This document shows, piece by piece, positions 22,428 to 48,795 of a stretch of 64,000 nucleotides of DNA. The stretch comes from Candidatus Cloacimonadales bacterium (GTDB taxonomy: Bacteria > Cloacimonadota > Cloacimonadia > Cloacimonadales > JAFGVF01). Within the stretch, counting starts at the first letter, position 1. Every line of letters starts with the position of its first letter. A program made the translations under genes and the position numbers. The DNA is taken from contig OY782781.1 in assembly GCA_963678315.1 (NCBI GenBank), positions 1,504,001 to 1,568,000 of the forward strand, written 5' to 3'. The notes beneath the pieces are model-generated. The model had not been told where the DNA came from. It worked only from the letters and a program-made list of their open reading frames with translations, and made no database searches.

Positions 22428-22471
22428 TATTCCTCCAATCTTCCAGGTCAGCAGGCCTAAGCCTGCATCCC

Positions 22472-23239: not shown

Positions 23240-23269
23240 ACTACTTTGAAATGTCTTCTTTACCTCTTA

Positions 23270-23623: not shown

Positions 23624-23738
23624 ATACCCTCTTTAATATAGGGGCAGACCTTACTTGCCTGCCCTTATTACTAATAGTTATAAATCTTTAATTTATCAGT
23701 GTTTATCTGTGATATCCGTGGCTTTATTCAATTATCCC

Positions 23739-24173
23739 TTAAAAAAGCTTCTTAGCCAAGCCACTAGCAAGTGCCTTTATCCCAGAAGTAGCAAGCCCAG
23801 TTCCTAAGTCTTTAAGCCATTTAGAACCATCTTTTTCTCCTGTCTTCTTAGCCTCTTTCGTGACTGTATTATATATAGATTGTACAGGATCATTAGTTGC
23901 TAGTTTCTTAGATAGTAATGCTAATTCTGCTTGAGAAGTGAACCTTCTAACATGCTTCTCTGCAATTTTCTTTGCATCTGCAGGATTAGTAGCTCTTGCT
24001 CCACCTGCTATAATACCTTCCAATATTGTGCTTATTGTAGGGTAAATTGAGTCAAATTTGATTACTTTCTTTCTTACTAAGTAAACAACAACTTGAATAA
24101 GAATTGTACCTAAAACTCCTAGTGTCATCATAAATTCAGGAATCTGAGTCCATTGTGTCCATAGTTCAGCCAT
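23739..24173 (-). CDS. Putative holin / membrane protein
   Basis: N-terminal transmembrane helix; directly upstream of the endolysin. Confidence 0.4.
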   Translation of the reverse strand: MAELWTQWTQIPEFMMTLGVLGTILIQVVVYLVRKKVIKFDSIYPTISTILEGIIAGGARATNPADAKKIAEKHVRRFTSQAELALLSKKLATNDPVQSIYNTVTKEAKKTGEKDGSKWLKDLGTGLATSGIKALASGLAKKLF

Positions 24174-24314
24174 CTATCCTCCGATTTATTTGGTACGCAA
24201 AACCCTTTAGTCCGGCTGCTGCCGGAATCTTGGTTGCCTTTTATTGTGTTGCATTCATCTTGAATGCGAGTCTTCATACTGGGAACGCTGGCTGCTAGCC
24301 GGCTTAATTCTTAA

Positions 24315-24509
24315 TTACCCCAATATCAACTTTATAGTACCAGCCACAACTGCTGATGTCATTACTCCGGTTATCCAAGTAAGCATGGTAAGCTTAGTCT
24401 CTATTCTGCTAATTCGCTCTAAAAGACCAGCTCTACCGTTGCCATATAATATCTTCTTAATGTTGCTTACTTCACTTTCTAGTATTTGGTGGTGCTCGCA
24501 TCTTTCCAT
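24315..24509 (-). CDS. Small coiled-coil protein with C-terminal TM helix (holin-like)
   Basis: LYGNG..GL..R...IE followed by a hydrophobic helix; in the lysis region. Confidence 0.5.
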   Translation of the reverse strand: MERCEHHQILESEVSNIKKILYGNGRAGLLERISRIETKLTMLTWITGVMTSAVVAGTIKLILG

Positions 24510-24517
24510 CGTTCAAC

Positions 24518-25063
24518 CTATACTCCTGATTTCTCAGGAATACCTTTGATAATGAAGTATTTATCCCCACTAGGACCTGAGTATTCTGTGGAAATTGTAG
24601 CGTTATAGAGTCCATTAAACTCATTAGATCGCTCATAACTCCATCTCAAACCATTGAAAATAAGAACATTTGATTTATCAGCTGACCATAATACTATCGT
24701 TCTTGCAATATCATTGAGTTCTGTTTCCAGAAAGTCCTTACGTTCTTGAGTAAGACCGATCAAAGTCAGCTCAACTGTGTTAGTTCTCTTACCTTCAATG
24801 ATATAGTTTGATGTCTTAAGCTTTTCAACCTTAGATTCTTCCTTACCAGGCTTTTCACCTAAATCAGACAGTTCATCAAAATTTGAATTTAAAAAAGCTT
24901 CAAATTCAGTCTGTCCAAGAATAACTTCAGGAGGTACATCTGCTAATGATCCAAATGCTCCATCGCCTATCCAACAAGAACCATGTCTAAATGATGCAAG
25001 TTGCTCATTAAAGTCTATTACTGGTCTATCTAAATTTGGTTTATTAGGTACTGTTCCAGCCAT
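24518..25063 (-). CDS. Probable major tail tube protein
   Basis: 181 aa, between capsid and tail chaperone/tape measure genes; beta-rich. Confidence 0.5.
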   Translation of the reverse strand: MAGTVPNKPNLDRPVIDFNEQLASFRHGSCWIGDGAFGSLADVPPEVILGQTEFEAFLNSNFDELSDLGEKPGKEESKVEKLKTSNYIIEGKRTNTVELTLIGLTQERKDFLETELNDIARTIVLWSADKSNVLIFNGLRWSYERSNEFNGLYNATISTEYSGPSGDKYFIIKGIPEKSGV

Positions 25064-25074
25064 AATCTACCTCC

Positions 25075-25986
25075 TTAGCTTGGGTCTGCTGTTGTTTTAT
25101 CAGAAATTTGATAAACCCAAGTATCTTCCAACTTAGCTCTACCAAAGGTTCTGTAAGGAACATATCTATCACTTGTTGCCAGGTCATTGGTACTTGATAG
25201 AGTTTCCATGAGTTGATTACCAAACATGAAGCAATATTCATGACCAAAGATAACAGGAGTAGAATCATTTTTAGCTGCTGTAGAATTAATAGCACCAGCC
25301 TTATCTACTTGAGGAATGTGATTTAAAAGAATCACATCAAAACCTAACAATCTACCAATGAAACCGTTAGGGATTGGCATCTTGCTTTGCTGTCCAATTT
25401 TATCAGCTGAAATAAACTGATCAATTTTATACAATTGACTTTCATGATCTGGACCGATAAAGCAGAATCTCTTGTCAGTAGGTGCTTTAGCTTTGTTGAG
25501 TTTAAGTCTAGCAGCAATGAAATCATCAATAGTGATTTTGTTAGCAGTAGTCGCATGACCAGCAAAGTCTAATTTCGCACCTGCAGGAATAGCTCCAATA
25601 AGAGCAGTTAAGATGTTGATATCTTCTTTTTCTAAGATATTGTTAGCACCATCAGCAGACTTCTCTTTCAAGGTCTTAACTGTTGTTTGAGCATCTAAAT
25701 CTCTTTGAACAAGAAATGGATTACCAACCTTTTGATCTACTGTTAAATCTTTAGAACCAGATGTAGAACCAGATGGAGCTTCAAACTCACCACCAACAGC
25801 CACTACTTGACCAGATTCAGTTGTAATATAAGGAACATGGATTGTCTTCAATCCTTTCTTTGCAAACTTAGAAACATCATATAGATAGCTCATTGCATAT
25901 CTAGTGTTTGTCTTCTTTCTCTTGATAGCATTAAGAGTCTCTGTAGTGACTAAATCACCATAAATAGTATTTGTAGCTTGTGCCAT
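25075..25986 (-). CDS. Major capsid protein
   Basis: Follows the Clp protease; ARLKLNKAKAP..KR and GFIGRLLGFDV resemble HK97-fold capsids; high-expression codon bias. Confidence 0.8.
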   Translation of the reverse strand: MAQATNTIYGDLVTTETLNAIKRKKTNTRYAMSYLYDVSKFAKKGLKTIHVPYITTESGQVVAVGGEFEAPSGSTSGSKDLTVDQKVGNPFLVQRDLDAQTTVKTLKEKSADGANNILEKEDINILTALIGAIPAGAKLDFAGHATTANKITIDDFIAARLKLNKAKAPTDKRFCFIGPDHESQLYKIDQFISADKIGQQSKMPIPNGFIGRLLGFDVILLNHIPQVDKAGAINSTAAKNDSTPVIFGHEYCFMFGNQLMETLSSTNDLATSDRYVPYRTFGRAKLEDTWVYQISDKTTADPS

Positions 25987-27047
25987 TATCTATTGTCCTC
26001 CATGTACTTGTTTTTGAGTCTTTCATACTCTTCAGGATTAGTCTTTAACAAGTTAGTAGCAGCTTCTGGATCTTCAATGAGCTTATCAAAAGTCATTTCT
26101 CCATTAGCTTCTGGATTACCTGAATTTGTGATATCAACTTCATTCAATAAAGCCTTGCTTTTTAATCCTTCATTTGCTTTAACAAACTCTTCAAAAAGAG
26201 TCTCTTCTTTAGCAATCAAAGTACTTGCAAAAGCCTTTTGAGAAGGTGCAATCTTACCTTCTGCAATTGCTTGAATAATCTTTGCTTCTCTTGCATCAGC
26301 AATTAGCTTCTCATTTTCTTTACGCAACACTTCATTCTCATCTGCAATCTTTGCAAATTTAGCATTAATAGCATCAATCTTAACAACTGCTTCAGTCTCT
26401 GATTTAACACCTAATGCCTTCAATATTTCTTCCATACTGCCCTCCATTGGATTTTGGTTGTTCTTTATAAAATTTAAATATTCTACGTTATCTTCAAATT
26501 GATTTACAAAATAGTTCTTAACAGGAACATTTGGAATAATGCTTGAGATAAACCCCTTATCTAAAGCATCTTGAGCAGAAAGCCAAGTCTCTTTATCCAT
26601 CAAGTCGCTTATCTCTTCTGCTGATAAATTACTATGACTAGCATAAATATTTACAAGTTGCTCTTTTATCTGATCTAACAAACCAGCAGTCTTCTTTAGT
26701 TCTTCAGAATCTCCTGTAATGCTAATTAATGGATTGTGAATCATATACATGCTGTTTTCTGACATCTCTACACTATCTCCAGCTAATGCTATAATTGATG
26801 CCATTGATGCTGCAATCCCTTCTATAATTGTTTTAACAGACCCAGAATGCCCTCTGAGTACATTGTATATTGCTAATCCATCAAAAACTTGCCCTCCTGG
26901 TGAGTTAAGATGCAAAATTATATCACCACTTATTGCTTTGATTTCCTTAGCAAAAGCCTTTGCTGTTGTTCCCCAAAAGCCTATCTCATCATAAATATAT
27001 ACATCAGTATGACTGGCTTGATTTACTATCTTATACCACTTTTTCAT
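25986..27047 (-). CDS. ClpP-type prohead protease with C-terminal scaffold
   Basis: IYDEIG, LNSPGG.VFDG.AIYN, GIAASMAS, MIHNP and ETWLSA motifs. Confidence 0.92.
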   Translation of the reverse strand: MKKWYKIVNQASHTDVYIYDEIGFWGTTAKAFAKEIKAISGDIILHLNSPGGQVFDGLAIYNVLRGHSGSVKTIIEGIAASMASIIALAGDSVEMSENSMYMIHNPLISITGDSEELKKTAGLLDQIKEQLVNIYASHSNLSAEEISDLMDKETWLSAQDALDKGFISSIIPNVPVKNYFVNQFEDNVEYLNFIKNNQNPMEGSMEEILKALGVKSETEAVVKIDAINAKFAKIADENEVLRKENEKLIADAREAKIIQAIAEGKIAPSQKAFASTLIAKEETLFEEFVKANEGLKSKALLNEVDITNSGNPEANGEMTFDKLIEDPEAATNLLKTNPEEYERLKNKYMEDNR

Positions 27048-27131
27048 AAAAGGCCCTCCTTTAATTATCCATTCTCCATTCTAAATTAACTAGTGCCACT
27101 ATATCATACTTATAATATAAAATCTTAAATC

Positions 27132-27148
27132 GTACTGATTTTCAGTAC
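27132..27148. promoter_or_regulatory. Palindrome in the divergent late intergenic region (candidate activator site)
   Basis: GTACTGA-TTT-TCAGTAC. Confidence 0.35.
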
Positions 27149-27327
27149 TTTTTTTAAGAAATTATCATTCTTATGTTATCATGACACTGACTGGGAACGC
27201 TCGGCTGCTAGCCGGCTCTTCAAAAACTGGGAACGCTCGGCTGCTAGCCGGCTCTTACTGGATTGCATTTATTCGAGAAAATGTGTTCAATCTTAGACAT
27301 AAAATAAAAAAATAAATAGGAGTCATA

Positions 27328-27735
27328 ATGCTAAACTTACTCTTCGAAAATCTTATAACGAAACTAAAAGATATGTCTGTAGAGACTAATGACACACCTC
27401 TCTTCAAACAGGTCGAACCCTACGAAGGTCAATTTGATAACATATCTGAATACCTTCTTCTCCCTCCATCTGCCTTTGTTGAACTGTCTGATGGTGGACC
27501 AAATCAAGAAGGACGTCAAAATACTCTCACATCATCAGTTGCAATCTATGTCACTACTGATCACATCAAAGGAAATAAACCTACTGCTATGTTTAATATC
27601 ATAGACCAACTTCGCAAACAGCTTAATAAACAATGTCTAGGCAATGGATTCTTAAAGTTTGATGGTTATCAAAGACTTGCTATCTTCCCAGGCTTTATTA
27701 CCTATCAGGTTAATTTTCAACATGAAGAAATGTAA
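27328..27735 (+). CDS. Mu gp37-like tail completion protein
   Basis: VEPYEGQF..PSAFV pattern; adjacent to gp36-like gene. Confidence 0.55.
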   Translation: MLNLLFENLITKLKDMSVETNDTPLFKQVEPYEGQFDNISEYLLLPPSAFVELSDGGPNQEGRQNTLTSSVAIYVTTDHIKGNKPTAMFNIIDQLRKQLNKQCLGNGFLKFDGYQRLAIFPGFITYQVNFQHEEM

Positions 27736-27810
27736 CATTTACTGGGAACGCTCGGCTGCTAGCCGGCTTCTTCATCCGTGGCTAAATAAAATTAAAAAAA
27801 GGAGCAAATT

Positions 27811-28191
27811 ATGTACGGAAATATTGACCAACTAAAATCCTCTTTCGGCTCTAAACAAGACCTCCTCCTTCAAGGAGTTACAGACCAAGAATTAACTGAG
27901 ATACTACAATCTCAATCAGATTATATCGATGGTTTCCTCCAGGTAAGGTACAATCTACCTTTAGAGAATTCTAACCCGATTATAAACAAGATTTGCATTG
28001 ATTTAAGCAAGGCAGAAACTTATAGAATGTACGCTTCTAATGACCTTCCTGATGCAATCAAATCACAAGAGAAACAAGCACTAAAAGATCTTCTCAGCAT
28101 TCAAAAAGGAAATTTACTTATTCTTCCTGAACAAGCAGATGAAGATGATATTGTTTCAAGACCAACATATTTTAAAGAGTGGTTACAATGA
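27811..28191 (+). CDS. Mu gp36-like (DUF1320) head-tail adaptor
   Basis: IDGFLQVRYNLPL...ICIDL...ALKDLLSIQKG pattern. Confidence 0.85.
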   Translation: MYGNIDQLKSSFGSKQDLLLQGVTDQELTEILQSQSDYIDGFLQVRYNLPLENSNPIINKICIDLSKAETYRMYASNDLPDAIKSQEKQALKDLLSIQKGNLLILPEQADEDDIVSRPTYFKEWLQ

Positions 28192-28676
28192 CAAAAGATA
28201 AGCTAATGAAGTCAATAGGAATATTGATTTCTAATAAGATAAAACAACGCATCAGGTCTGGTAAAGTACAGCCACAAACTAACAAGACCAATGGCAAGAA
28301 AACGCTCAATGAATCTGGCAGATTGTGGAGATCAATAACATATAAAATAAAAGGAAATACTATTATTGTAGGTACTAATGTTAAGTATGCAAAGATACAC
28401 CATTTTGGTGGCACTATCTTCCCTAAAAAAGCTAAGTATCTAGCAATCCCTTTAACTCCTGCAGCTAAAGTAAAGTCTCCGAGAGACTGGGAAAACACTT
28501 TTATAAAAAAAGGGATTATATTCAGAAATCTGGATAATGGCAATGTTGAAGCTCTGTATGCTTTAAAGAAGTCTGTTAAAATCCCTGCTAGACCTTACAT
28601 GTTCATTGATAACAAAGATAAAACTCTAATTCAAAATCAAATCATCAAATTCTATGAATCTAAAATTAAACAGTAG
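28179..28676 (+). CDS. Virion morphogenesis protein (Mu gpG-like)
   Basis: LNESGRLWRSI, VGTNVKYAKIHHFGG and IPARPYM motifs. Confidence 0.9.
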   Translation: MVTMTKDKLMKSIGILISNKIKQRIRSGKVQPQTNKTNGKKTLNESGRLWRSITYKIKGNTIIVGTNVKYAKIHHFGGTIFPKKAKYLAIPLTPAAKVKSPRDWENTFIKKGIIFRNLDNGNVEALYALKKSVKIPARPYMFIDNKDKTLIQNQIIKFYESKIKQ

Positions 28677-28765
28677 CTTGGGAGTGTAACCATCCCTGGT
28701 TACGCTATTATTCTCTTCTTATCTGTGTTATCCGTGGCAAAAAAAATAAACAAAGGAAGGCATTC

Positions 28766-29242
28766 ATGGCATATAAACGAGCTATCAAAGAACAAGCAAA
28801 ACAACTCTATGTTATCGAGGGTAAAAAGATAGATGTTATTGCTAATATCTTATCTGTACCAAGCCAAACCCTCTACAACTGGAAGACAAAATATGAATGG
28901 GATAGAGCTATTAAAACAGCTGGAAATATAGGCTTATCAATCGAACTAGTTAAAGGCTTACAAGATGAAATATCAAAAGCAATAGCTCAAGGTAAGCTTT
29001 CTGACCCTAAAACAGCCGATGCTCTCTGCAAATTAGTAGGCATAGTTGAAAAAGTAACACCCGGAAAGGTCATGCTTTCCAATATTTTCAACATGTTAGA
29101 GGATATTACTCACTGTATTCAACGCAAACTAGGAGATGATGTCTTTCTTAATCTCTGGGGTAAGTATCTACCAGAAATAGCTGAAGAATTAAGAAGCAAA
29201 TATTCTCCAGATAATACCCTTAGCAGGATGAACAATGACTAA
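28766..29242 (+). CDS. Terminase small subunit-like (DUF1804/HTH)
   Basis: AKQLYV...TLYNWK..YEWD helix-turn-helix; precedes the large terminase. Confidence 0.7.
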   Translation: MAYKRAIKEQAKQLYVIEGKKIDVIANILSVPSQTLYNWKTKYEWDRAIKTAGNIGLSIELVKGLQDEISKAIAQGKLSDPKTADALCKLVGIVEKVTPGKVMLSNIFNMLEDITHCIQRKLGDDVFLNLWGKYLPEIAEELRSKYSPDNTLSRMNND

Positions 29243-29350
29243 CACAGGGAACGCTGATCCGATGCATGTCCGGCTACTGCCGGATGCCGGCTCTCACTGG
29301 GAACGCTGGCTGCTAGCCGGCTTAACCTTAAACTAAAATAAGGATTAACT

Positions 29351-30853
29351 ATGTCTAAACAACTAACCAACAGAGAATTCGACAAATACGTTGAACAACT
29401 TGTCAAAACCATAAAAAAGCACACTACAGGCTTTCCCAATGATACAGCTCATAAACAGCGAATCAGAAAAGAAAAAGCTCTCAGCGATTTCCTCTTCTTT
29501 GCTAAAACTTATTTCCCTCATTACATCAGGGCTCAATTTGGAAAACCTCATAAGCAAATGCACGAGGAAACAGAGAAATTAGGACAAATAACAGCTATTG
29601 CTGGTTTTAGAGGTCTTGGTAAAACAACGCTTCTTTCTGTAATTAAACCTATGTGGAAGGCACTCAGAGAAGAGATTTTCTTTAACTGTAAGATTGCAAA
29701 GTCTGATGATAAAGCAAAAGAGAGAACTGCTGCCATCAGAGCTGAATTTATGCACAATGAGTGTATCAAACATGACTTCGGTTTACAGGTAAGGCCTAAC
29801 TCTTCTGATCTAGATTTTACTATTAAGACAGGTTGCCGTTTCTTAGCTATGGGATATAAAACAGGTGTTCGTGGTGTTATAAACATGACTCACAGACCTG
29901 ATTATATAGACATAGATGACTTAGAAGACCACAACTCTTTCAATGAAAGAATTGCTAAAGAAAAGCTTCAATTTGTTACAGAAGAAGCCTACGGTGCTTT
30001 AGAAGATGGACTTGGTTATGTTATCTGGCTTGGGAACTTAACTCATCAGAAATCAGCTCTAAATCTTTTCTATAAGTCAACTAAAACTGGTGAACTTGAA
30101 GGACGTAAGATGCTTATTATCAAAGTTGATGATGGCAATTTTAATCCTGCTTGGCCTGAAAAGCATACACGTGAAATGTTAATCAAAATCTACAAAACTA
30201 TTGGCAGATTTGGTTATGAACGTCACTTCCGGATGAATCCTCTAGTAGAAGGACTTAAATTCAAAGAAGCCTGGTTCAGATATTACTCCCCTGAAGATAT
30301 CGAAAATGTTACTTTTGATAAGATTGTTAACTATACTGACCCTTCACTTGGGGAAAAGAAAACAAGTGATTATAAGGCTTCAATGACTGTTGGTTACTAC
30401 AAAAAGAAGTACTATCTCCTTGAATGCTATATCAGAAAAGCATCTATCATTGATATGATTAAATATCTCTACTACATCCACTCTAAATACAACGCTCACA
30501 TGTATATGGAAGCCAACTTCTGGCAAAAAGTTCTCTGGGATTACATTCCTCAACTTGCTGAAGTATTTAAATACCTTCTTCCAGTAAGAGGTGTCATAAA
30601 TACAGAAAAGAAAGAACTCAGAATAGAACGCTTAGAACCTTACTTTGAGTGGGGTTGGCTACTATTCCCAATAATAGAAACACCGGAGATTGCACTTCTC
30701 AAAGACCAACTTCTCGGATTCCCAAACTATCCAAATGATGATGGTGGAGATGCTCTTGCAGGTGCTGTAAATGAACTCAAAAACGACTCTCAGGAGGAAA
30801 GCTATGAAACCATTGAAACTAAACTGGCAACTAAATTCTCAGATGTCTGGTAA
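29351..30853 (+). CDS. Terminase large subunit
   Basis: FRGLGKTT, RPDYIDIDDLED, DPSLG...SDYKA and DDGGDALAGA motifs. Confidence 0.9.
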   Translation: MSKQLTNREFDKYVEQLVKTIKKHTTGFPNDTAHKQRIRKEKALSDFLFFAKTYFPHYIRAQFGKPHKQMHEETEKLGQITAIAGFRGLGKTTLLSVIKPMWKALREEIFFNCKIAKSDDKAKERTAAIRAEFMHNECIKHDFGLQVRPNSSDLDFTIKTGCRFLAMGYKTGVRGVINMTHRPDYIDIDDLEDHNSFNERIAKEKLQFVTEEAYGALEDGLGYVIWLGNLTHQKSALNLFYKSTKTGELEGRKMLIIKVDDGNFNPAWPEKHTREMLIKIYKTIGRFGYERHFRMNPLVEGLKFKEAWFRYYSPEDIENVTFDKIVNYTDPSLGEKKTSDYKASMTVGYYKKKYYLLECYIRKASIIDMIKYLYYIHSKYNAHMYMEANFWQKVLWDYIPQLAEVFKYLLPVRGVINTEKKELRIERLEPYFEWGWLLFPIIETPEIALLKDQLLGFPNYPNDDGGDALAGAVNELKNDSQEESYETIETKLATKFSDVW

Positions 30854-30920
30854 CAGGAACACAGGCGTCTCTGCCTGTAACTCAACAAATCAACACCTAA
30901 ACAAATAAACAGAGGATAAA

Positions 30921-33419
30921 ATGAACTTAATAAATCTATTCAAAAAAACTAACACCACTATCCTGACCCAAACAAAGATTGAAGAAAGCAAGCCTCTCTG
31001 GACTACCAACGTGACTCCTGGAGAGATTGCTCTTGCTATGATAAAGAGCCACAACGGCTATCTTAGATACCTAAATAACCTCTATGATAAACTTTATAAG
31101 TATGATGATAATCTTGCAGGAGATACTGATGTTCGTATCGAAGCACTTAAATCAGCAAACTACATCTTACCTGAAGGTTTATCTAAACAACAAACTCATT
31201 TCTTTACTTCCTTCTTGGATAAATTCTTCACAACTCTAGTAGACCACACCCTAGAACTAAAACTAAGAGGAAACCTCTTCAAACAGATAGTTTTTGCTTT
31301 AGAAAACAACCTCTACACAATCGAAAAGTTCATATCTTACAAAAACCTCGATTTAAGGGCTGTAAATCATGAATTGGCATTCTATGTCAATGATGAGAAG
31401 AAAACACTCTCAGATGATAAATTTGTGCGTATTTTTAAAGATTCTGCTGTCTATGAGTCTATCATCAAATATTATGCCTTCTTTTCATTCGCTTTAAACA
31501 ATTGGGCATCTTTTATTGAAACCTACGGAAAGCCTATCAGAATTGGCAAATACAAACCAGGATCTACAAAAGATGAAGTTCGCAAGCTAAAAGAAATGAT
31601 TAAGAATCTTGGTTCTGATTTAGGAGCTGTTATCTCTGAAAATACTCTCATTGAATTTGCTGATTTTAAGAACGCTAGAGCTAATTCAGAGCTCTATGAC
31701 AACTTGCTTAACTTCTGTAAAAAAGCTATTTCCAAAAGAATACTAGGACAAACACTTACCACCAACACAGAAACAACAGGCTCTTATGCTCAAGCTAAAG
31801 TTCATGATATGGTGCGTAAAGATATCCTTCAAGCTGATCTAAGAGATTGCTCTAAATATATCAGCCAAATCTGTTCACGTCTAAACAGACTAAATTTCTC
31901 TGATAACGATATCAAAATTGAGCTCTCTCTCCCTGAACACATTGACCTATCTACTAAGATCACCATAGACACCCAACTCAACAATATCATTCAAATAGAA
32001 CCAGATTACTGGTACAATACCTATAACATCCCAATCCCTAAATCAGGTGCTAAACTTGTAACCACTGGGAACGCTCGGCTGCTAGCCGGCTCTTCAATTC
32101 CTCTCACTGGGAACGCTGGCATCCTTGCCGGCTCTTCAAACACTTTACCAGGAGGCACGTCAAATGACGTTCCCTTTCTACCTTCAGGAATAGTATTTTC
32201 TCAAAGCTATCTCAACAAAAGCAACAAAAAAGTCGCAAAAATAAACGAGAAATATCTCTCTAAACTGGACACCTTAGACAAAGCTAAAGATGCTTCTTTT
32301 CCAGGTGATCTATATTATTACTTCGGGAATGAGCTTTCCAAGCTGCTTCTAGCATCTTACTCCCAACAAAAAGTTCAGACCTATCGCAAAACCTCCAACA
32401 GAGAAGGCCTAGCCCCTGTGCTGGCATCAGATTCTTTCGATATTGACTGGAATCTCACAGACGTCAAAGCTCTCCATGCTTTCAGACAACAGGCCTTCCA
32501 AGTAGCTGGAGTTAATTGTGAAAACCTTAGACAGATGATAAAAGACCAAGCAGAAAAAGCCATTACTGAAGGTATTACATTTGCTGAATTTAGAGAAAAC
32601 CTCAAGCTGAATGGATTCGAAGCGGATAATCCTTATCATCTCAAGACCAACTTCGAAACAGCCATCAATGGTGCTAAATCTGCAGCCAAATGGCAAGACA
32701 TCCAGGAGTTAGAAGACATCTTTCCATATCTCAGGTATTTAACTATGAATGACGATGCTGTGCGAGAAGAACACAAAGCTTGGCATGGCTTAGTCTTACC
32801 AGTAAATGATCTCTTCTGGAATGAAAGCTATCCACCTAATGGTTACGGTTGTAGATGTGATGTTGAACAAATCACAGAGGATGAAGCCAAAGAATCAAAG
32901 CGTTTCGGAGATAAACCAGATCCAGAAACTAAAACCGATAATCACTTCAAAGGCAATCCAGGTAAAGACAATTCAATCTGGGGAAACTGGCTGAAAGAGC
33001 AGTCTTTAAAATCAACCGATCCTAGCGAGCTAAAGCTCAAAGACTGGTCAACCGTCAAAGGAACTAAAAAAGAGCCTGAAAAGCTTGTTTTTGCTAAAAC
33101 AGACGAGGCTAAAGACTATTTCAACGATAACATTGCTGGCTTAAATATAGATGTATGCAAATACCCTACTAATATCCCTGATTCACTCTTCAATAATATC
33201 AAAAGCAAACATCAAGATAAAATGTCTTTCATCAAACCAACTCTTGAGTCTCCTACAGAAGTCTGGACTGACTCCAACAACCACACCAACTACCTCAAGA
33301 AATACCCTTCAGGAACTTCTAAAATTGTTGTTAACATTGCAGGTGATGTTATAGAATTTGATATACCAGGAGAGAGTAAAATTGATATACTAAGAAAAGG
33401 GGATTGTGTGAAGAAGTAA
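30921..33419 (+). CDS. Portal (DUF935) fused to MuF head morphogenesis domain and an extra C-terminal domain
   Basis: WASFIETYGKP, ISKRILGQTLT and GSYAQAKVH (portal); YLRY..MND..VREEH...YPPNGYGCRC (MuF); TLESPTEVW in the tail. Confidence 0.88.
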   Translation: MNLINLFKKTNTTILTQTKIEESKPLWTTNVTPGEIALAMIKSHNGYLRYLNNLYDKLYKYDDNLAGDTDVRIEALKSANYILPEGLSKQQTHFFTSFLDKFFTTLVDHTLELKLRGNLFKQIVFALENNLYTIEKFISYKNLDLRAVNHELAFYVNDEKKTLSDDKFVRIFKDSAVYESIIKYYAFFSFALNNWASFIETYGKPIRIGKYKPGSTKDEVRKLKEMIKNLGSDLGAVISENTLIEFADFKNARANSELYDNLLNFCKKAISKRILGQTLTTNTETTGSYAQAKVHDMVRKDILQADLRDCSKYISQICSRLNRLNFSDNDIKIELSLPEHIDLSTKITIDTQLNNIIQIEPDYWYNTYNIPIPKSGAKLVTTGNARLLAGSSIPLTGNAGILAGSSNTLPGGTSNDVPFLPSGIVFSQSYLNKSNKKVAKINEKYLSKLDTLDKAKDASFPGDLYYYFGNELSKLLLASYSQQKVQTYRKTSNREGLAPVLASDSFDIDWNLTDVKALHAFRQQAFQVAGVNCENLRQMIKDQAEKAITEGITFAEFRENLKLNGFEADNPYHLKTNFETAINGAKSAAKWQDIQELEDIFPYLRYLTMNDDAVREEHKAWHGLVLPVNDLFWNESYPPNGYGCRCDVEQITEDEAKESKRFGDKPDPETKTDNHFKGNPGKDNSIWGNWLKEQSLKSTDPSELKLKDWSTVKGTKKEPEKLVFAKTDEAKDYFNDNIAGLNIDVCKYPTNIPDSLFNNIKSKHQDKMSFIKPTLESPTEVWTDSNNHTNYLKKYPSGTSKIVVNIAGDVIEFDIPGESKIDILRKGDCVKK

Positions 33420-33453
33420 AAAAAGAGAGAAGATTTGCTTCTCTCTTATCTAC

Positions 33454-34272
33454 TTATTTTCTACTAGATAATTTATGATAAAGTTCTAATATATCATTAA
33501 TTATAGCTATGTTTTTTTGATTACAATTTTTGGTTTTATTGATAATGTCAAAGAATTTTAATTGATAGTCAGTTTCCTGAATTGATTCAATATCACTGAT
33601 ATTTTTCATTGTCAACATTCCTTTTAAAGACTCTTTAATACCAATTAACTCTGATTTATAGTATCTACTCGAGTTCTCCTTATTTAATTTAACGCTTGTT
33701 TCAAGTGAATTTACCCACATTACCAGAGCAACTAGATAGTCTTTTTTTGTTTCAAAACTTAAACCTAAAGTTGAATATATCATATTAATTTCTATAAGTG
33801 TTTTATCATCATGCAGTTTTCTTAATTTATTAGCAGTCTCAAAATCCTTTGTTAATTTAGATATCTCCTCATCAGTTGTATCTTTTATCTCTTTAGGTAA
33901 CTTCCAGCCAACATACCAAGTGATAAACACAGTTAGAAAAACCCCAAAAATAGTAACAAACAAAGTATAAAACATATTAGTCTTTGCCAATTCATTAGAG
34001 AATATTGCTCTTTGTTCATCTAAATCATACTGTTTTAGAAGTAACAAATCAAGTTTAGCTCTTAGGGTATCATTCTCAGCAATTAGCACATCTACTTTTT
34101 CTCTAGTGCAGTAATCATCATAATTAATGTCTCTACTTTCTGTTACAGCAACATTTGTGTAATACTCATTTTCAGGATAAAATGTTCTTTTCCCAAGCAG
34201 AAAGAGCCCTACAATTATTAGCAATAGCACAACTAATGATAGCCCCCCAATCCAACTAGTAAGATTCTTCAC
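33454..34272 (-). CDS. Moron membrane protein (2 TM + coiled coil)
   Basis: Hydrophobic N-terminus, second TM FLTVFITWYVGWKLP; very AT-rich. The start may be a GTG. Confidence 0.7.
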   Translation of the reverse strand: MKNLTSWIGGLSLVVLLLIIVGLFLLGKRTFYPENEYYTNVAVTESRDINYDDYCTREKVDVLIAENDTLRAKLDLLLLKQYDLDEQRAIFSNELAKTNMFYTLFVTIFGVFLTVFITWYVGWKLPKEIKDTTDEEISKLTKDFETANKLRKLHDDKTLIEINMIYSTLGLSFETKKDYLVALVMWVNSLETSVKLNKENSSRYYKSELIGIKESLKGMLTMKNISDIESIQETDYQLKFFDIINKTKNCNQKNIAIINDILELYHKLSSRK

Positions 34273-34494
34273 ATATACCTCCTCAAATATTATGCTTCAT
34301 TAACATCATTGATATTTATATTGTCAATGCATTTTATATATCATTCCCTGAATAACATTAAAAAATAGAATTTAATATAGCAATGAAATAGTATATGTGA
34401 TACACTAAGAAAAGGGGATTGTTTTAAAAGTAATTTACTGGGAGTCAGTGCTGGTATCAATAAAGGGAGATGTGTGCTTTTCCCTTTTTATAAG

Positions 34495-35463
34495 TTAATC
34501 CCCAATTAGTCTTTGGATAATTCCTTTCTTCTTTTTCTTCTGTTTAATATGTTCATCTAATTCAACACTTCTTAGTTTCATATCTATTTGATCCCATAGT
34601 TTGATATTATTAGTTACAAGCTCTTTAAAACTATCTAATCCTTCGATTGTAGAAGACTTAATGTGATAGAGAAGATTTTTATAGTATGCTACTTCGTATT
34701 TATTTATTTCTAGTTCAATATTCCTACTCGTTAATAAGTCATCAGTTAAGTTTTCTATTCTTTTAATTAGACTCATCAAATTACTTTTTTCGTAATCAGA
34801 TATTTCTATATCTGTAAGATAACTAACCAAGGATGATAATTGAGAAATCACAATCAGCAACTCTGTTTTTTTTGACCCATATTTGTCAGTCATTTCATAA
34901 TAAAATTCATCAAAATGTTCATAGAAACTTGCTAACTGTAGCCATATAGTTTTTACTTCTTTTTGGTACATATCTCCTAAATCATCGATTTTAATTTGAA
35001 AATCATTTTTTGTGTTCACTATTTGCTTTATTGTGAATTTCTTAATCTCTTCGTTATGTTTGTTTACTTCATCTTTCATTTTATCTGGTAGTCTTAAACC
35101 AATAAACCATGTAAAAAAAATAGTTAGTACTGCTGATAAAACACCTGTTATCCACCAGAAAACAGACAAATATCTATCAAAATCATCTTTCAAATCATCA
35201 TATTCAATCTTATATAAATCCCTTTCAGTAGAAGATAGTACCTTTTGGGATTCAAGATATTTAATTCTTTTATCCTGCTGCTTAATGATAGATTGTAACT
35301 TATTTATTTCTTCAATATTACAAGCTTCAAGCTGCTTAAATCGCTCTTCAATATAAGTAATCTGTTTATCCGGTTCTAAGCCAAACAAACCACTAAACAC
35401 TAATATGAGAAAAACAACTATTTTAATTTTCATAAATAACCTCTTTAAATCTTTTCTAATCAA
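34495..35463 (-). CDS. Moron membrane protein, paralog of 33454-34272
   Basis: Signal/TM, coiled coil, TM VLTIFFTWFIGLRLP. Confidence 0.7.
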   Translation of the reverse strand: MIRKDLKRLFMKIKIVVFLILVFSGLFGLEPDKQITYIEERFKQLEACNIEEINKLQSIIKQQDKRIKYLESQKVLSSTERDLYKIEYDDLKDDFDRYLSVFWWITGVLSAVLTIFFTWFIGLRLPDKMKDEVNKHNEEIKKFTIKQIVNTKNDFQIKIDDLGDMYQKEVKTIWLQLASFYEHFDEFYYEMTDKYGSKKTELLIVISQLSSLVSYLTDIEISDYEKSNLMSLIKRIENLTDDLLTSRNIELEINKYEVAYYKNLLYHIKSSTIEGLDSFKELVTNNIKLWDQIDMKLRSVELDEHIKQKKKKKGIIQRLIGD

Positions 35464-35558
35464 AATTTATCAAAATGAAAGATAGCAAAAATCAAACAAG
35501 ATCTTTGGATCCCTTTTCACATGTTTAAAAAAATGTTAAAGGCATAAACACCTTTAAT

Positions 35559-36479
35559 CTATAATCTGTTCAATGTCATAGAATCAAAACCGTTTATTAA
35601 TTTTTCTCTTAATCTAATTAGTTTTTCTTTATGTTCTTGTGTTAATATACCTTCTCCCTCAGAAAGTATGAATTTAATTTTCTCATTTAATTCTAACAAT
35701 TCTAAAGTTGTAGCATCAAAATCTTTAGTCATTTCAAAATATATACCATCTATTAAGATCATAAAGTCATTTAGAATCTCACTAACCTCAGGATATATTT
35801 GAACAATATTTATAATAGGACGGTAGCTGTTTATTAGCAATTTAAGAGAATGTTTGAATCTTCGATTATTTAATTCGTTTTTTATTAGTGTAAAATTGCT
35901 GTGCATAATAAGTTGAGTTTGATAAAGTATGGTTTTTTTATTTTGATCTGATTTCTTATCAAAATTTTCATTCAATAGATTTTTATAGCTTTCAACTAAT
36001 TCATTTGATCTCCTTTCAATTTTCTTGTGTTCTCTTGTAACATAATATAACAATATTGTAATAACTATAGCAAAAATTCCTACTATCCAACTTAGTAAAT
36101 TAGACCACAATGTTCTATACTCAATAAATCTAAAATGCAAATTGTTTAAGTTACAGTGTAAAGAATCTAATTTAGAAATTGTATCTATTTGTTTATTTAA
36201 CTTAGAGTTATTTTTGTGATAAAGACTATCAAGTTCGACAACATAATTTAGTAGTATTTCATCTAGATTGTTTACTAATATTGAGTCTGTTTCAGAAGAG
36301 TTGATAAAAATTCTTTGAGACCTTAGATCATTTATTCCTTCTTTCAAAATATTTTGCTCAGAAGTTTTTGAAAAAGTATTGAAAAAAACAATAAACATCA
36401 GAGTAATATAGACTATGTTTGTAATCGTTTCAATAACAGATAATTTAGATGACTTAGGCTTCATATATTTCCCTTGCAA
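35559..36479 (-). CDS. Moron membrane protein (2 TM)
   Basis: Same topology as its neighbours; TM WIVGIFAIVITILLY. Confidence 0.65.
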   Translation of the reverse strand: MQGKYMKPKSSKLSVIETITNIVYITLMFIVFFNTFSKTSEQNILKEGINDLRSQRIFINSSETDSILVNNLDEILLNYVVELDSLYHKNNSKLNKQIDTISKLDSLHCNLNNLHFRFIEYRTLWSNLLSWIVGIFAIVITILLYYVTREHKKIERRSNELVESYKNLLNENFDKKSDQNKKTILYQTQLIMHSNFTLIKNELNNRRFKHSLKLLINSYRPIINIVQIYPEVSEILNDFMILIDGIYFEMTKDFDATTLELLELNEKIKFILSEGEGILTQEHKEKLIRLREKLINGFDSMTLNRL

Positions 36480-37047
36480 ACTGTAAATATTTTACTAATT
36501 TAATGATTTCTTTTAGTGTTACAGAATATGATAACTGTCCATAAATCTTTCTTTTCAATACTTCATAAATAATAGACATTTTTGATGATTTATATGAAAT
36601 ATAGTAAGCTACATATATTTCTTCAGAGCAGTTTTTAGAAATTACTATATACATTCCTATCATTGTCTTAGCAAGTTCTTCAGATAGGATTCCCTTTCGA
36701 GTTAGCCTTTTGATATATTTGGAGATATATACTATTTCTGTATAAAAATTTTTATACTCACGATAAGCCTTCTTATTTAAAACTCTTTCTAGAAATGCTA
36801 TAGCAATAGAATATTGATGAAAATCTTTGGTGTTAATGGCTGACACCCTAAAATCTGCAATGTAATCCTTAATTTTTGACTCTTGTGTTTTAATACTATC
36901 TGAAAAAAATTCTTTTCTATAAAACCTTTTTTGTTTATAATAAATCCATATTTTAACAAAAGATACTATTAAGAATAAAACATATACAATTATCATTACT
37001 TCTAATGACAAAGATTGTTTTAATGCTTCTACATATTTCTCTAACAT
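36454..37047 (-). CDS. Moron membrane protein (1 TM)
   Basis: N-terminal hydrophobic helix; overlaps the next gene. Confidence 0.6.
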   Translation of the reverse strand: MLEKYVEALKQSLSLEVMIIVYVLFLIVSFVKIWIYYKQKRFYRKEFFSDSIKTQESKIKDYIADFRVSAINTKDFHQYSIAIAFLERVLNKKAYREYKNFYTEIVYISKYIKRLTRKGILSEELAKTMIGMYIVISKNCSEEIYVAYYISYKSSKMSIIYEVLKRKIYGQLSYSVTLKEIIKLVKYLQFAREIYEA

Positions 37048-37462
37048 CTATTATCCTTATCTGAAAATCACATATTATTTATTTTTATCTTTTTCTTGAT
37101 ACAAGTATTAATTTATGTCAAGTTTTCTTCTCTTCTTGTATTTCATAGTCAGAGATTAAATCTTCTCGTGATTATCATCCCCTTAGTTTAGTTCCATTCA
37201 CCTACGACCTGCATTGCTACCTTTAATTTTCTTCTTTAAAATATCATACAAGTAGCTACTTACTTTTGACATATCACTGTTTTCAATATTAAAAGCTCTC
37301 AACTTAACTTGTTTATATTTTTTAGATATCTTTTCTCCTTTTCCCCTTGTTTATATTATAAATATTTATATCAAATTTTGTTGGTCAAGCTTTTTTTATT
37401 ATCTCGTGCTTACCATGGTCCCATTCTCAATAATCAATTATGCACTTATCCGTGGCTTCCTC

Positions 37463-37658
37463 TTATCTCCTAATTAAATAAGCCACAAACATCCTCTTAA
37501 CAATCGGATGCTTTAGTCTCTGGGCATAAGCCTCATTCTTAAATATCTTCAACTGATTAAAGAAGGCAATCCAATCTTCTTCAGTGTAGTTTTCCAGGAT
37601 CTCTTTCTCTTTAGCTTTAAATTCTTCATTTTTCTTTATCTCTTCAGGAGACAGCTCT
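37463..37658 (-). pseudogene. Duplicated 3' fragment of the 38298-38945 gene
   Basis: ~190 bp nearly identical to 38318-38511 (ELSPEEIKK...YLIRR), about 8 substitutions. Confidence 0.8.
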
Positions 37659-37839
37659 ATTTCATTAAATAGTTTGTGTGATGATTCTCTCAAAGTTGTC
37701 TGATATTACATTCTTGTAAATAATCTAATTAATTGCATTGTGAAATGGTTGAAAAAAAACTAGACATCCTTTTATGTATACTTTCTTATGTATTTAACTA
37801 ATATAATCTTATATTAAATCTAAGAAAGGAGGTAAGCTC

Positions 37840-37995
37840 ATGGATAAGTGGGAAATCTACAAAGATAACAAGAATGAGTGGCGTTGGAGAAGAACTTCTT
37901 CTAATGGTCGTATCGTTGGTGCATCGTCTCAAGGTTATACAAATAAATCAGATTGTATCAGCAATGCTCAAAGACATGGATATACAGGCAACTAA
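37840..37995 (+). CDS. YegP/DUF1508-family small protein (51 aa)
   Basis: MDKWEIYKDNKNEWRWRRTSSNGRIVGASSQGYTNKSDCISNAQRHGY; AGGAGG RBS; own terminator. Not in the ORF track. Confidence 0.85.
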   Translation: MDKWEIYKDNKNEWRWRRTSSNGRIVGASSQGYTNKSDCISNAQRHGYTGN

Positions 37996-38023
37996 TAGTT
38001 AGCTACCTGTATAAGTGATTAAC

Positions 38024-38062
38024 GCTCCAGTTTTATGTGACATCCAAAACTGGAGCTTTTTT
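38024..38062 (+). terminator. Intrinsic terminator of the YegP-like moron
   Basis: GCTCCAGTTTT...AAAACTGGAGC followed by TTTTTT. Confidence 0.8.
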
Positions 38063-38167
38063 ATTATTTGATAAATGTCAAACAACTGTCAATTATTTTT
38101 TTTCTTATCCTCAATCCCCTCTTGCATAAAATCATCAATTAATGCAGGAGGTTATTCAGCATCCCCT

Positions 38168-39120
38168 TTCGTGTTCTTAGTGTTTTTCGTGGTTCAATTC
38201 TTATTGGTGAAGATTCGTGCCATTTGTGGCTATCCTTTCTTCTTCGTGTAATTAGTGCAATTCGTGGATAGTCTCTTTTTATCTGCCTTTATCCGTGCTA
38301 TCCGTGGCTTTCTTCCTCTCTCCTAATTAAATAAGCTACAAACATCCTTTTAACAATCGGATGGTTTAGCCTCTGAGCATAAGCCTCATTCTTAAATATC
38401 TTCAGCTGATTAAAGAAGGCAATCCAATCTTCTTCAGTGTAGTTTTCTAGGATCTCTTTCTCTTTAGCTTTAAATTCTTCATTCTTCTTTATCTCTTCAG
38501 GAGACAGCTCTGGCTCTTTATAAGATGTATATCTCTGCTTCTCTTTACGTTTTCTGCTATTATATTCCTGCAAATACCCCTCAAATTTAGTCCCAAACAG
38601 AGTTTTAGGCCTAAGATACCTATGTTGATCTGTTGTCAGCCACTGAGCCGATTTTACATCAATAACCTGTTTAAATTCATCAACATTAAATCCATCATTA
38701 AGTCTGGCTCTGATGAGTGCTTTCGTATCGGAGGTGGAAGCTCTATATTCTTTACCGGTTACATGGTTCAAGTAGCCAATTATCTCAAGACATTTACTCT
38801 CAAAATCCTCTTTCGGACTCACCTTCTGTGCTTTTCCATACTTCTTTAACAACCTAAGCAAGAACTGCCTTTGCTTTTGCTCTAGCAGTTCTTTACCTAT
38901 CAAGTCTTTAGCTTCTAAATAAAGCTCTCTATTATCTTTCTTCATTCTCCATTATGCCTTTATCCGTGTTTATCTGTGCTATCCTTAGCTCTTTTTCTGC
39001 ATTCTTCTTATTAGTGTAGATTCGTGCCATTTGTGGCTATCCTTCCTTCTTCTTGGTGTAATTTGTGTAATTCGTGGATAGTCTCTTCTTATCTGCCTTT
39101 ATCCGTGCTATCTGTGGCTA
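38168..39120 (+). repeat. Clusters of 9-10-bp ATCCGTG/TTCGTG repeats; ~110-bp direct repeats at 38201-38310 and 39008-39120
   Basis: Direct sequence comparison; related clusters at ~23697, 27775, 28721, 37448 and 40316-40392. Confidence 0.8.
38298..38945 (-). CDS. Protein with conserved phage C-terminal (Phg_2220_C-like) domain
   Basis: IIGYLN..TGK.Y...LIRARLNDGF...VID.K..QW...YLRPKTLFGTKFEGYL. Confidence 0.8.
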   Translation of the reverse strand: MKKDNRELYLEAKDLIGKELLEQKQRQFLLRLLKKYGKAQKVSPKEDFESKCLEIIGYLNHVTGKEYRASTSDTKALIRARLNDGFNVDEFKQVIDVKSAQWLTTDQHRYLRPKTLFGTKFEGYLQEYNSRKRKEKQRYTSYKEPELSPEEIKKNEEFKAKEKEILENYTEEDWIAFFNQLKIFKNEAYAQRLNHPIVKRMFVAYLIRREEESHG

Positions 39121-39131
39121 AATCGTCACAA

Positions 39132-39518
39132 CTAAGAAACGCTTTCATAGTAAATAGCTCTTACATGCCAGTAATTCAACAAATACTTCTCGGCTACAAT
39201 GTTTATAGCACATTTAACACTATATCCTGAACCTCTTAGTTTTCTTATTTCTTTCTTGATATACTTATTGCGTTGCAATAGCCTATTCTTACTAGCTCCA
39301 AAATTCTCAACTCTCACTCCCAACTGCTTTATCTTACGATTAGGATAAATCTTATTATGAACAGTAATCCAAGCATTCGACATCTTAACCAAAGATCTTA
39401 ACAACTTCCTATTCTCGATTTGCTCTTCTAAGAAGGCTTTTCGTAAGGCACAATCAGCTTTAATAGTATAATTACACTTTGATGCTATCTTACATTTATT
39501 CTTTAATATACAATCCAT
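39132..39518 (-). CDS. Putative Mor/C-like transcriptional activator
   Basis: C-terminal RN..I......G......VAEKY.L....V..I.Y helix-turn-helix pattern. Confidence 0.45.
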   Translation of the reverse strand: MDCILKNKCKIASKCNYTIKADCALRKAFLEEQIENRKLLRSLVKMSNAWITVHNKIYPNRKIKQLGVRVENFGASKNRLLQRNKYIKKEIRKLRGSGYSVKCAINIVAEKYLLNYWHVRAIYYESVS

Positions 39519-39592
39519 TTTTCCTCACTAATTCCCCTCCCCAGGAGGAGTGCCATCCTAAGATGGCAGGGTGTGTCATTAACTCCTAACTC

Positions 39593-40213
39593 CTAAAGGC
39601 TTGCATAATTTACGTTAATCTTCTTCCAATCGATATATACTTTCACACCTTTGCCACGGTCTTCAGATATCTCTTCACGCTTATATACTTCGGTATAGGC
39701 TCTTTTATCTATCACTTTCATATTAGAAGTTATCAGATGAACTCCTTTTTGATATTCCTGGTCCTCAAAATCATAAGAACACAGTTTTTGTAGTTGTGAT
39801 TTTGATATTGAACCAGAAGATTTTACACTAAGAACATCTTTGAGAATAGTCTTGATTTTTCTGTTTAGATTAGGTTGAAGGTTTTCAACCCAATTAGCTA
39901 TCATTTGAATACCAGAAGAAACATTAGTATCAATTGCTACAATCTCAGCAAAACGTGTTTCAACTTTGATTTGCTCATCAAAGCTATAATCACTTGCAAA
40001 ACCATTCCAAACTTTAAGTCCTGATGCTTTAGCTTTACTATTCAAATAATTCTCAGTCAGCTTTCTCTCTTTAGCTTTTGCCTTCTCCATTTGTTCAGAG
40101 ATAGACTCTCTAATAGCCATTATTTCAGTTACATAATCATGTGCTTCTAATACTTCTTTCTTCAATAAATCTGCTCTAATCTTACCATCTTTCCCATTTA
40201 AATATCTTGCCAT
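39593..40213 (-). CDS. DUF3164-like Mu early protein (start MARYLN)
   Basis: GGAGG RBS before the ATG at 40213; position in the Mu early operon; C-terminal INVNYASL. Confidence 0.55.
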   Translation of the reverse strand: MARYLNGKDGKIRADLLKKEVLEAHDYVTEIMAIRESISEQMEKAKAKERKLTENYLNSKAKASGLKVWNGFASDYSFDEQIKVETRFAEIVAIDTNVSSGIQMIANWVENLQPNLNRKIKTILKDVLSVKSSGSISKSQLQKLCSYDFEDQEYQKGVHLITSNMKVIDKRAYTEVYKREEISEDRGKGVKVYIDWKKINVNYASL

Positions 40214-40313
40214 TTTATATTGCCTCCATTTCTTATTTTGGGTTGCATTCACCGTGTCCGGCAACTGCCTGATCTTGAATGCGATTCTTCTTAAAATTCT
40301 TCATTATCTTCCT

Positions 40314-40802
40314 TTATCCGTGTTTATCTGTGCCATCCGTGGCTATTCTCTCTTCTTTCGTGTCATTAGTGTCATTAGTGTAATTAGTGGATAAATACTT
40401 CCTCAACATCACTATAACTCCACTCTTCTGCCTGCTATCAAGTGCATTCCAATGTACTATCCCATAGCGTTTTCCTATGAACTTCCTGAATCTATCATTA
40501 CTCCATCCAAGCTCTCTTAACATGCTCCAGACAAAGTCTCCCTGCTTATCAAACTGACCAATCCCATACTTAGCTCGGTAATCCTGCATACTGGGAACGC
40601 TGGCCTCCGTGCCGGCATCAATTATGCTAAGTACCTCTTGCAATCCTCTAATACTAAGCTTCCTCAATGAATCACCATATCCCCAGCTAGCCAGATACTG
40701 ATGAAACTCCTCACTAGACCAACCTTTCTCACGCTTTACCTTTATCATGATTGTCTGTCTCAATGATTTAGCATATTGCTCTTGTTTAGCTGTCATTGCC
40801 AT
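40314..40802 (-). CDS. GemA/gp16-like regulatory protein
   Basis: SLRKLS..GL..VL and W....F..FI.KRYG...LD......VI.MLR patterns; contains an in-frame palindrome. Confidence 0.6.
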   Translation of the reverse strand: MAMTAKQEQYAKSLRQTIMIKVKREKGWSSEEFHQYLASWGYGDSLRKLSIRGLQEVLSIIDAGTEASVPSMQDYRAKYGIGQFDKQGDFVWSMLRELGWSNDRFRKFIGKRYGIVHWNALDSRQKSGVIVMLRKYLSTNYTNDTNDTKEERIATDGTDKHG

Positions 40803-41256: not shown

Positions 41257-41332
41257 TATTCACTCTCTTCTTACTTTCTTAGTGCAACCTACTAGTTGCT
41301 TTCCTACTATTCACTCTTAATTATGAACTAAA

Positions 41333-42082: not shown

Positions 42083-42146
42083 CTTAACTCCTTCTCTTAA
42101 CTATTGTTTCTCATTTTTAAATTTTCATTTTTCATTGCTTAATTAT

Positions 42147-48792: not shown

Positions 48793-48795
48793 TTT

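Follow-up and report, generated by a model that had tools for sequence, protein, structure and literature searches.

The transposase-binding sites described for Mu and comparable phages lie at the phage ends: in the accessible parts of the respective papers, Mu is reported to have three transposase sites per end (PMC3562280), D3112-like phages three 22-bp sites per end (PMC4378225) and KS10 four terminal sites (PMC2628397). Here we examine a 64-kb stretch of a Candidatus Cloacimonadales genome of 2,988,751 bases (contig OY782781.1; ‘the window’ below means this whole stretch), in which a Mu-like transposable prophage of ~32.8 kb occupies positions 16272..49060. The prophage has its own family of end-type sites, which resemble the MuA sites L1-L3 and R1-R3 and those of the D3112-like phages and KS10 in being imperfect 20-30-nt repeats, several per end and inverted between the ends. 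Unlike those terminal sites, a further member of the family is single, central, inside a structural gene (the portal-MuF fusion gene, 30921..33419 on the plus strand) and paired with a second motif, one that is repeated in the transposase gene. This pair of motifs, at 32233-32272, is the subject of the present report. A literature search, which did not extend to subscription papers, found in the accessible portions of its sources no description of an internal transposase site or of an intragenic enhancer in transposable phages.

Three other features of Mu invite comparison. Its enhancer (operators O1-O2) lies at the operators between the repressor gene and the early operon. Cis-immunity in Mu, Tn3 and Tn7 depends on end sequences to which transposase binds and which render the DNA around them a poor target. 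The Mu strong gyrase site (SGS), near the midpoint, has a proposed role in pairing the ends. The accessible text of one paper describes the enhancer as bridging to end-bound subunits through domain I-alpha of MuA (PMC3562280). That of another attributes cis-immunity in Mu to removal of MuB near the transposase-bound ends, with central regions unprotected in vitro, and describes a separate, MuB-dependent mechanism that protects the Mu interior; no internal immunity site for Mu was found in the part of that paper that was accessible (PMC2837660).

The terminal sites of the prophage form two clusters. Six are at the left end (16294..16527; 30-nt windows starting at 16294, 16316, 16391, 16435 and 16478 on the plus strand and at 16498 on the minus strand), and four are at the right, repressor-side end (48791..49028, minus strand; windows starting at 48791, 48836, 48885 and 48999). 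The central site occupies 32227..32256 on the plus strand, outside both clusters and 16 kb from either end. Its core, the 20-mer TCGCAAAAATAAACGAGAAA at 32233-32252, recurs at 16322-16341 on the same strand. The original prediction, made from the letters of this DNA, had reported this 20/20 match; it is exact, and it proves to be the core of a wider site of consensus grade over 30 nt. The window holds eight matches to the 20-mer with at most three mismatches (four at the left end, three at the right end and the central one), compared with a mean of 0.01 in shuffled sequences, and the whole genome holds ten, nine of them in the prophage and one elsewhere with three mismatches. When a 30-nt matrix was built from the ten terminal sites alone, with the central site excluded, the central site scored 36.9 bits and ranked second of 11; the terminal sites score 26.5-38.8 bits on what is their own matrix. 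In the other 2.96 Mb of the genome, outside the prophage, the best score is 16.6 bits.

The family consensus has AAAAGTYC before the core and AAAT after it. The flanks of the central site (5' flank AAAAAGTC) fit this consensus better than do the flanks of the exact-match site at 16322, and over a span wider than the 20-mer the central site matches the right-end site at 48839-48865 at 24 of 27 positions. Since its flank fits other sites better, the central site is not a plain copy of site 16322. This matters for a neutral explanation that we regard as a substantial possibility, in which the coding DNA of a lysine-rich helix of the portal-MuF protein, already similar to the A-rich end consensus, became identical to it through short-patch gene conversion or template switching with a terminal site as donor, and the second motif arose by another accident of the same kind or by a run of substitutions; the transposase may then bind the site, with neither consequence nor selection. 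The exact tract shared with site 16322 stops sharply at 20 nt, in favour of this explanation, but the flanks follow the consensus and not the presumed donor.

Seven bases beyond the 20-mer begins a 13-mer, CTAAACTGGACAC (32260-32272, plus strand), whose exact reverse complement was predicted at 44389, 44440 and 44704 in the transposase gene and is indeed found there; with one mismatch it also occurs at 44509 and 44770. The 13-mer is part of a 14-nt unit, TCTAAACTGGACAC (32259..32272, plus strand), which encodes SKLDT and matches the repeats in the transposase gene exactly over its full length, the likeness to the copy at 44440-44461 extending to 19 of 22 nt. On a matrix built from the 11 direct units of the array in the transposase gene, the central unit scores 18.3 bits. 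Scanning the window with this matrix at a threshold of 12 bits gave one other match outside the array, of 12.1 bits, at 57759, which is outside the prophage. The central unit has the same orientation relative to its end-type neighbour as the array has to the right-end sites. We know of no Mu counterpart of a single enhancer-type unit beside an end-type site.

By whole-genome match counts, either motif is very rare in the DNA of the host: beyond the prophage there is no exact copy of the 13-mer, and three copies have one mismatch. An estimate that rests on these genome-wide counts and on the window scan puts the 13-mer, with at most one mismatch, at ~5e-7 per position and strand, with ~6e-5 occurrences expected within 30 nt of the central end-type site (our own arithmetic). 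Because both motifs are so rare, their adjacency is not due to chance, and the motif pair is real. A whole-genome match search found no locus in which the two motifs are contiguous; thus, the pair cannot have been copied from elsewhere in this genome in one step. Both motif classes are otherwise confined to the terminal clusters and to the array in the transposase gene, which, judging from sequence, are the places where a Mu-type transposase should act.

The pair is also close to the middle of the prophage. The inverted terminal repeats at the prophage ends (16275-16293 and 49039-49057, from a repeat search) put the midpoint at ~32666, so the pair lies 0.41 kb away, in agreement with the ~0.4 kb that had been reckoned from a midpoint at 32661. 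A near-midpoint position is shared with the SGS of Mu; unlike the SGS, which is a gyrase site, nothing here points to gyrase. The suggestion that the pair is a conserved central organiser of synapsis was put to a preset check on related prophages. The portal-MuF protein was matched in 17 of 61 related genomes, this one included, and DNA of up to 40 kb, as the contig allowed, was compared around ten matches in seven genomes. Seven regions with the same end-motif family were scored (G005a, G005b, G007a, G007b, G009a, G009b and G013). Two of these, G007a and G007b, have the same sites at the same places and were counted as one, which leaves six distinct phages; the G007b region is cut by the contig end before the right-hand sites and ends before the transposase gene, so it is outside the array comparison described below. 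Three regions (G004, G012 and G033) were left unscored because no cluster of matches to this end motif was seen in their flanking DNA, and G001, G010, G016, G021, G022, G036, G043, G048 and G056 were left out, most of their matches being weak, partial or on short contigs.

None of the six related prophages has an end-type site at the homologous helix, where their DNA is unlike the central site. Nowhere in their portal or MuF genes is the 16-nt core matched with two mismatches or fewer, and no array-type unit was found outside the transposase gene in any of the six. The pair therefore cannot be a conserved synapsis organiser like the Mu gyrase site, and this part of the original prediction is not supported. 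We accordingly consider it very improbable that the pair is a conserved central architectural element of the phage family, a counterpart of the SGS that is needed to join the ends. The distance of 0.41 kb from the midpoint would suit such an element, as would the precedent of the Mu central site, which the accessible parts of two papers describe as needed for efficient replication and thought to promote end synapsis (PMC2837660, PMC3562280). Against it, all six prophages of the same architecture lack the site, four of them have no internal end-type site at all, and in the other two such a site is 3.8 kb off centre.

The two exceptions deserve description. A consensus-grade internal end-type site is present in G007 (L026:3478-3493, in both copies) and in G005b (L023:16515-16530), at an intergenic position ~5.5 kb past the start of the portal gene, on the opposite strand. 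Internal sites carry the commonest variant of their own phage at core position 12: C in the central site and in five of the ten terminal sites of the phage studied here, T in G007 and G005b. In both relatives the site is part of a shared ~55-nt block whose flanks are unrelated, and it sits immediately upstream of a TTGAC hexamer, which accessory genes follow. The gene downstream in G007, together with the sequence immediately before it, is also present in G009a and G009b, which lack the site. From its sequence the hexamer could be a -35 box, and the block could be a promoter controlled by a binder of phage ends, or a recombination junction. Because two of the six relatives carry an internal site elsewhere, such sites recur in this phage group, and the retention of this one in a conserved block between unrelated flanks counts against a neutral by-product. 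The abutting hexamer would suit yet another explanation, one to which we give little weight: that the central pair serves a different binder, such as a regulator that binds end-type sequences near promoters, or has a role at the protein level as a shared LSKLDT peptide motif. Regarding the first of these, no promoter-like hexamer pair was found at or just downstream of the central site.

The peptide motif has to be judged together with the array. The transposase gene (42147..44924, minus strand) encodes 925 aa and is assigned by PHROG 310, ‘transposase’ (E 2.6e-64, residues 206-919), and by the Pfam family Mu-transpos_C (25.4 bits, cut-off 21.7); DDE_2 reaches 19.2 bits, below its cut-off of 23, and the match to the solved MuA core is weak (E 0.02). 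At the N-terminus, residues 2-26 resemble a helix-turn-helix (HTH_17, 26.7 bits, just under the cut-off of 27). The array itself spans 44340..44783 on the minus strand, 4.3-4.7 kb from the repressor-side end, and consists of 11 direct units of about [TC]TAAA[CGT]TGGACA[CT]T and one inverted unit at 44484; a 15-nt tandem run is included, and the repeats encoded at residues 47-195 are KLDT/KLDI/KVDI. The helix-turn-helix and the array-encoded stretch precede the conserved transposase body, which starts at residue 206, and are an added module of the transposase. The array resembles the Mu enhancer in that its short repeated motifs cluster away from the ends and that the transposase of the phage carries an additional N-terminal helix-turn-helix; unlike the Mu enhancer, the array is inside the transposase coding sequence and not in the operator region. 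In the intergenic region between the repressor and early genes (46345-46473), no array unit of at least 12 bits was found. By analogy with Mu, the array may be an enhancer-like element read by the N-terminal helix-turn-helix.

All six relatives with a readable transposase gene (L022, L023, L026, L030, L031 and L037) have an array in the equivalent stretch, with a motif that is specific to the lineage: CAAWGTGCA in G005a and G007a, CAAYGTGCC in G005b, G009a and G009b, and GCGACAACC in G013. Each phage gave 4-12 matches to its search pattern, all of them within the stretch in question; the rest of the 40 kb examined had none. Array type follows transposase type, not repressor type. In the phage studied here, ten of the 11 direct units share a reading frame and encode K-L/V-D-T/I, and LSKLDT is common to portal-MuF and the copy at 44440, as a protein-level role would have it. 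In the relatives, however, the 12 units of G005a are spread across all three reading frames and those of G009a across two (frame counts by our own arithmetic). Three homologous scattered units, moreover, keep their alanine with GCA in one type and GCC in the other, the same difference that separates the tandem units of the two types. The spread over several frames and the concerted synonymous change argue that the arrays act as DNA elements, of which the peptide repeats appear to be a by-product. A role for the peptide is also at odds with the terminal copies of the 20-mer, which are non-coding. When species-representative genomes were searched with a pattern of two adjacent units, no other species with this array type was found: the 68 loci comprised 67 single matches and one triple in an unrelated Polyangiales record, and none of them combined two array units with more than two end-type cores.

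Our leading interpretation, which the sequence comparisons suggest and which we hold tentatively, is that the pair is a selected, lineage-specific accessory transposase-binding site. The phage's own Mu-type transposase would bind an extra locus built into the portal-MuF coding sequence. Its end-binding domains would presumably read the end-type half, and its N-terminal helix-turn-helix would read the array-type half 7 nt away. Transposase held 16 kb from the ends would have its most plausible role as an accessory in cis. It might mark the middle of the prophage as ‘self’, extending MuB clearing and immunity to where end-bound transposase reaches least; the site would then resemble the determinants of cis-immunity in being a transposase-binding sequence that acts in cis. 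The alternative is a meeting point for the distant ends. Among the roles open to a functional site we favour, by analogy, the marking of the interior as self, because the end-dependent cis-immunity of Mu is described, in the accessible text, as failing at the centre in vitro (PMC2837660), and because a single site would not have the defined geometry that synapsis needs. What we infer is binding by the transposase, an enhancer role of the array and whatever effect there may be on immunity or synapsis. Neutral accidents explain the pair poorly, because two motifs of consensus quality, both confined to places of transposase action, stand 7 nt apart and have no contiguous donor. Selection for transposase binding would explain it simply, and the originally proposed composite, transposition-like site is in this sense partly supported.

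A broader proposal, which we think unlikely, would extend this interpretation to the low-GC Mu-like phage group as a whole. Such phages would write their transposition control into coding DNA, with an enhancer-like array that doubles as the flexible linker of the transposase. In the lineage studied here, selection would have added a third, composite loading site inside the portal-MuF gene at the midpoint. This site would hold transposase, and either the interior would be shielded from self-insertion or ends 33 kb apart would be paired, for which Mu uses a gyrase site; the specificity of the array would change lineage by lineage.

In the 832-aa portal-MuF protein, Portal_Mu covers residues 53-370 and Phage_Mu_F residues 539-648, and the pair encodes residues 438-451, VAKINEKYLSKLDT. 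The original placing of the pair in the portal-MuF linker holds insofar as its position is between these Pfam domains (residues 370-539); within that stretch, it comes just after the variable part of the linker with its repeats, in an amphipathic helix that can be aligned across the relatives. The inter-domain stretch thus has two parts, a variable one with in-frame host repeats and then an alignable one with hydrophobic spacing kept (KKVAKINEKYLSKLDTLDKAKDASFPGDLY in this phage, KELKKIKSQ-IKEAKSFKDIENMSYPKDLY in genus-g2 relatives). At the helix the length differs by one residue from that of the relatives; therefore, the pair rewrote existing coding DNA and is not an insertion. A relic of self-insertion or a nested phage end was considered and rejected, there being at most one residue of extra length compared with the relatives and, by eye, no resemblance to terminal sequence upstream of the central site. 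A programmed frameshift was rejected as well: the six A then G before the site are out of phase for a classic heptamer and absent from the relatives. Both other frames stop within the pair (by eye).

The variable part holds two copies of a GC-rich host repeat (32061..32144, plus strand, from a repeat search), read through in frame just upstream of the pair. This region has 53 matches in the host genome and further matches in six related genomes, and the 11-nt core of the repeat, CTGGGAACGCT, has 109 genome copies compared with 0.24 expected. Nine copies are in the prophage, all on the plus strand whatever the gene direction, at 7.5x the genome density; those other than the linker pair start at ~24278, 27187, 27223, 27738, 29296, 40587 and 42801. 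The two linker copies are among four in the prophage that are read in frame; the other two lie in the genes for GemA and the transposase. In the relatives, the same linker contains this host repeat or other hairpin repeats. The C-terminal tail of the portal-MuF protein (residues 749-807, 33165-33341) bears a likeness to the PBECR2 phage nuclease domain, at 25.6 bits just below the cut-off of 27.1, and PF18810 is listed for the relatives' proteins in precomputed annotations.

Several observations weigh against selection for transposase binding. Besides the absence of the site from the homologous helix of all six relatives, four of them have no internal end-type site anywhere, which makes the role of the site dispensable for this type of phage, and the internal site of G007 and G005b, besides being off centre, has the opposite orientation and no array unit beside it. 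The chance of so central a position is ~2.6% (0.86 of 32.8 kb, by our own arithmetic), and the position was noticed after the fact. The third-position GC of the 14 codons of the pair is 7/14, a level reached by 22.6% of the windows of the gene, so that codon usage shows no sign of constraint at the DNA level. Near-matches to the A-rich end consensus arise easily because the helix is lysine-rich and A-rich: G033 has one, ATAAGAGAGAAAAT, at the homologous place, and every prophage contains several matches to the end motif with 3-4 mismatches. The linkage between array type and transposase type, finally, is trivial because the array lies inside the transposase gene, and it proves little about what binds the array.

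Much of this is what a neutral by-product would predict: a site specific to one lineage, near-matches common in the lysine-rich coding DNA of these phages, unremarkable codon usage, and a linker that tolerates foreign DNA in frame, with a number of host repeats that differs between two strains. The second strain, P0003, is a closer one known from protein alone. Its portal-MuF is 90% identical overall, and its linker has lost 14 aa in frame and gained 38 aa made of host repeat; the 24-residue peptide around the pair is unchanged. Retention of the peptide in a strain that is ~4% diverged in alignable residues speaks against a by-product, weakly, as 14 residues would be unchanged by chance with a probability of ~0.5 (our own arithmetic). 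The heavier objection is that a by-product calls for two independent events 7 nt apart, from two donor loci.

Further copies of the pair were sought more widely. Matches to the portal-MuF protein comprise one 42%-identical locus in viral contigs (L041) and one locus in metagenome contigs (L062). The DNA of the gene has no match in 50,697 phage records, and a degenerate pattern for the pair gave no matches in the viral contigs. Sequencing runs listed with shared words number seven, from five studies; X3 contains 0.99 of the words sampled and may represent the source sample. When contigs from four of the runs (X3, X4, X6 and X7) were compared with 32150-49100, none of the differences listed, which exclude 473 further rows, fell inside 32233-32272; the single contig shown as covering the pair, X7, spans 32150-32493 and differs there by 10 other letters and 2 gaps. 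In G011, two matches of 87-89% to 32227-32263 were seen (L049 at ~1514 on the minus strand and L056 at ~1507 on the plus strand). They were rejected as part of a prophage, since they belong to a paralogous host intergenic element, and the likeness is probably a chance resemblance of A-rich DNA.

The rest of the prophage is organised in three blocks. Its ends, placed by the inverted terminal repeats and by gene content (Pfam, PHROGs), are approximate, and no 5-bp direct repeat (target-site duplication) was seen by eye at the junctions 16260-16300 and 49030-49070. The early operon runs leftwards from the right end on the minus strand and includes the genes for the transposase, the MuB-like ATPase, GemA and a DUF3164 protein. 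The MuB-like ATPase gene (41333-42082, minus strand; PHROG 296, ‘DNA transposition protein’, E 3.5e-16; AAA_22, 31.1 bits) is beside the transposase gene, and an S24/HTH repressor gene (46474-47205, plus strand; Pfam, PHROGs) is divergent from the operon. A plus-strand block contains the small and large terminase genes and the portal-MuF fusion, and the protease, capsid and tail genes are on the minus strand towards the left end. The terminase-portal block (27328-33419) is thus oriented opposite to the early and head-tail blocks, and where it meets the early operon there is a two-way terminator-like hairpin (33423-33447). The three-block layout with a fused portal-MuF is found again in the relatives. 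This genome has a single copy of the prophage; in G007 there are four full-size portal matches, each at a different place, and in G005 and G009 two each.

Other repeats were noted in passing. One of ~35 nt, TTTATCCGTG..TATC.GTGGCT, occurs at 23690-23726, 38276-38312, 38957-38993 and 40311-40347, just upstream of several minus-strand genes, and could serve middle or late genes as a common promoter or regulator site. The early region contains direct repeats of 211 nt (93%; 37457-37667 and 38310-38520) and 73 nt (93%; 38237-38309 and 39047-39119), which suggests a recent duplication of a gene cassette. A 49-nt repeat (88%) is shared between 24227-24275, in the head-gene region, and 44957-45005, just upstream of the transposase start codon.

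If the central pair is bound and effective, an internal transposase-loading site would have been described for the first time in a transposable phage, and it would offer a simple, testable answer to the old question of how such phages spare their own 30-40 kb from their own non-specific transposition. If it is instead a by-product, it still illustrates that a short coding tract can become an exact match to a cis-acting site. The lineage-specific arrays in the transposase genes may matter more, as they point to a possible location of the enhancer in these phages and offer natural variants of its specificity.

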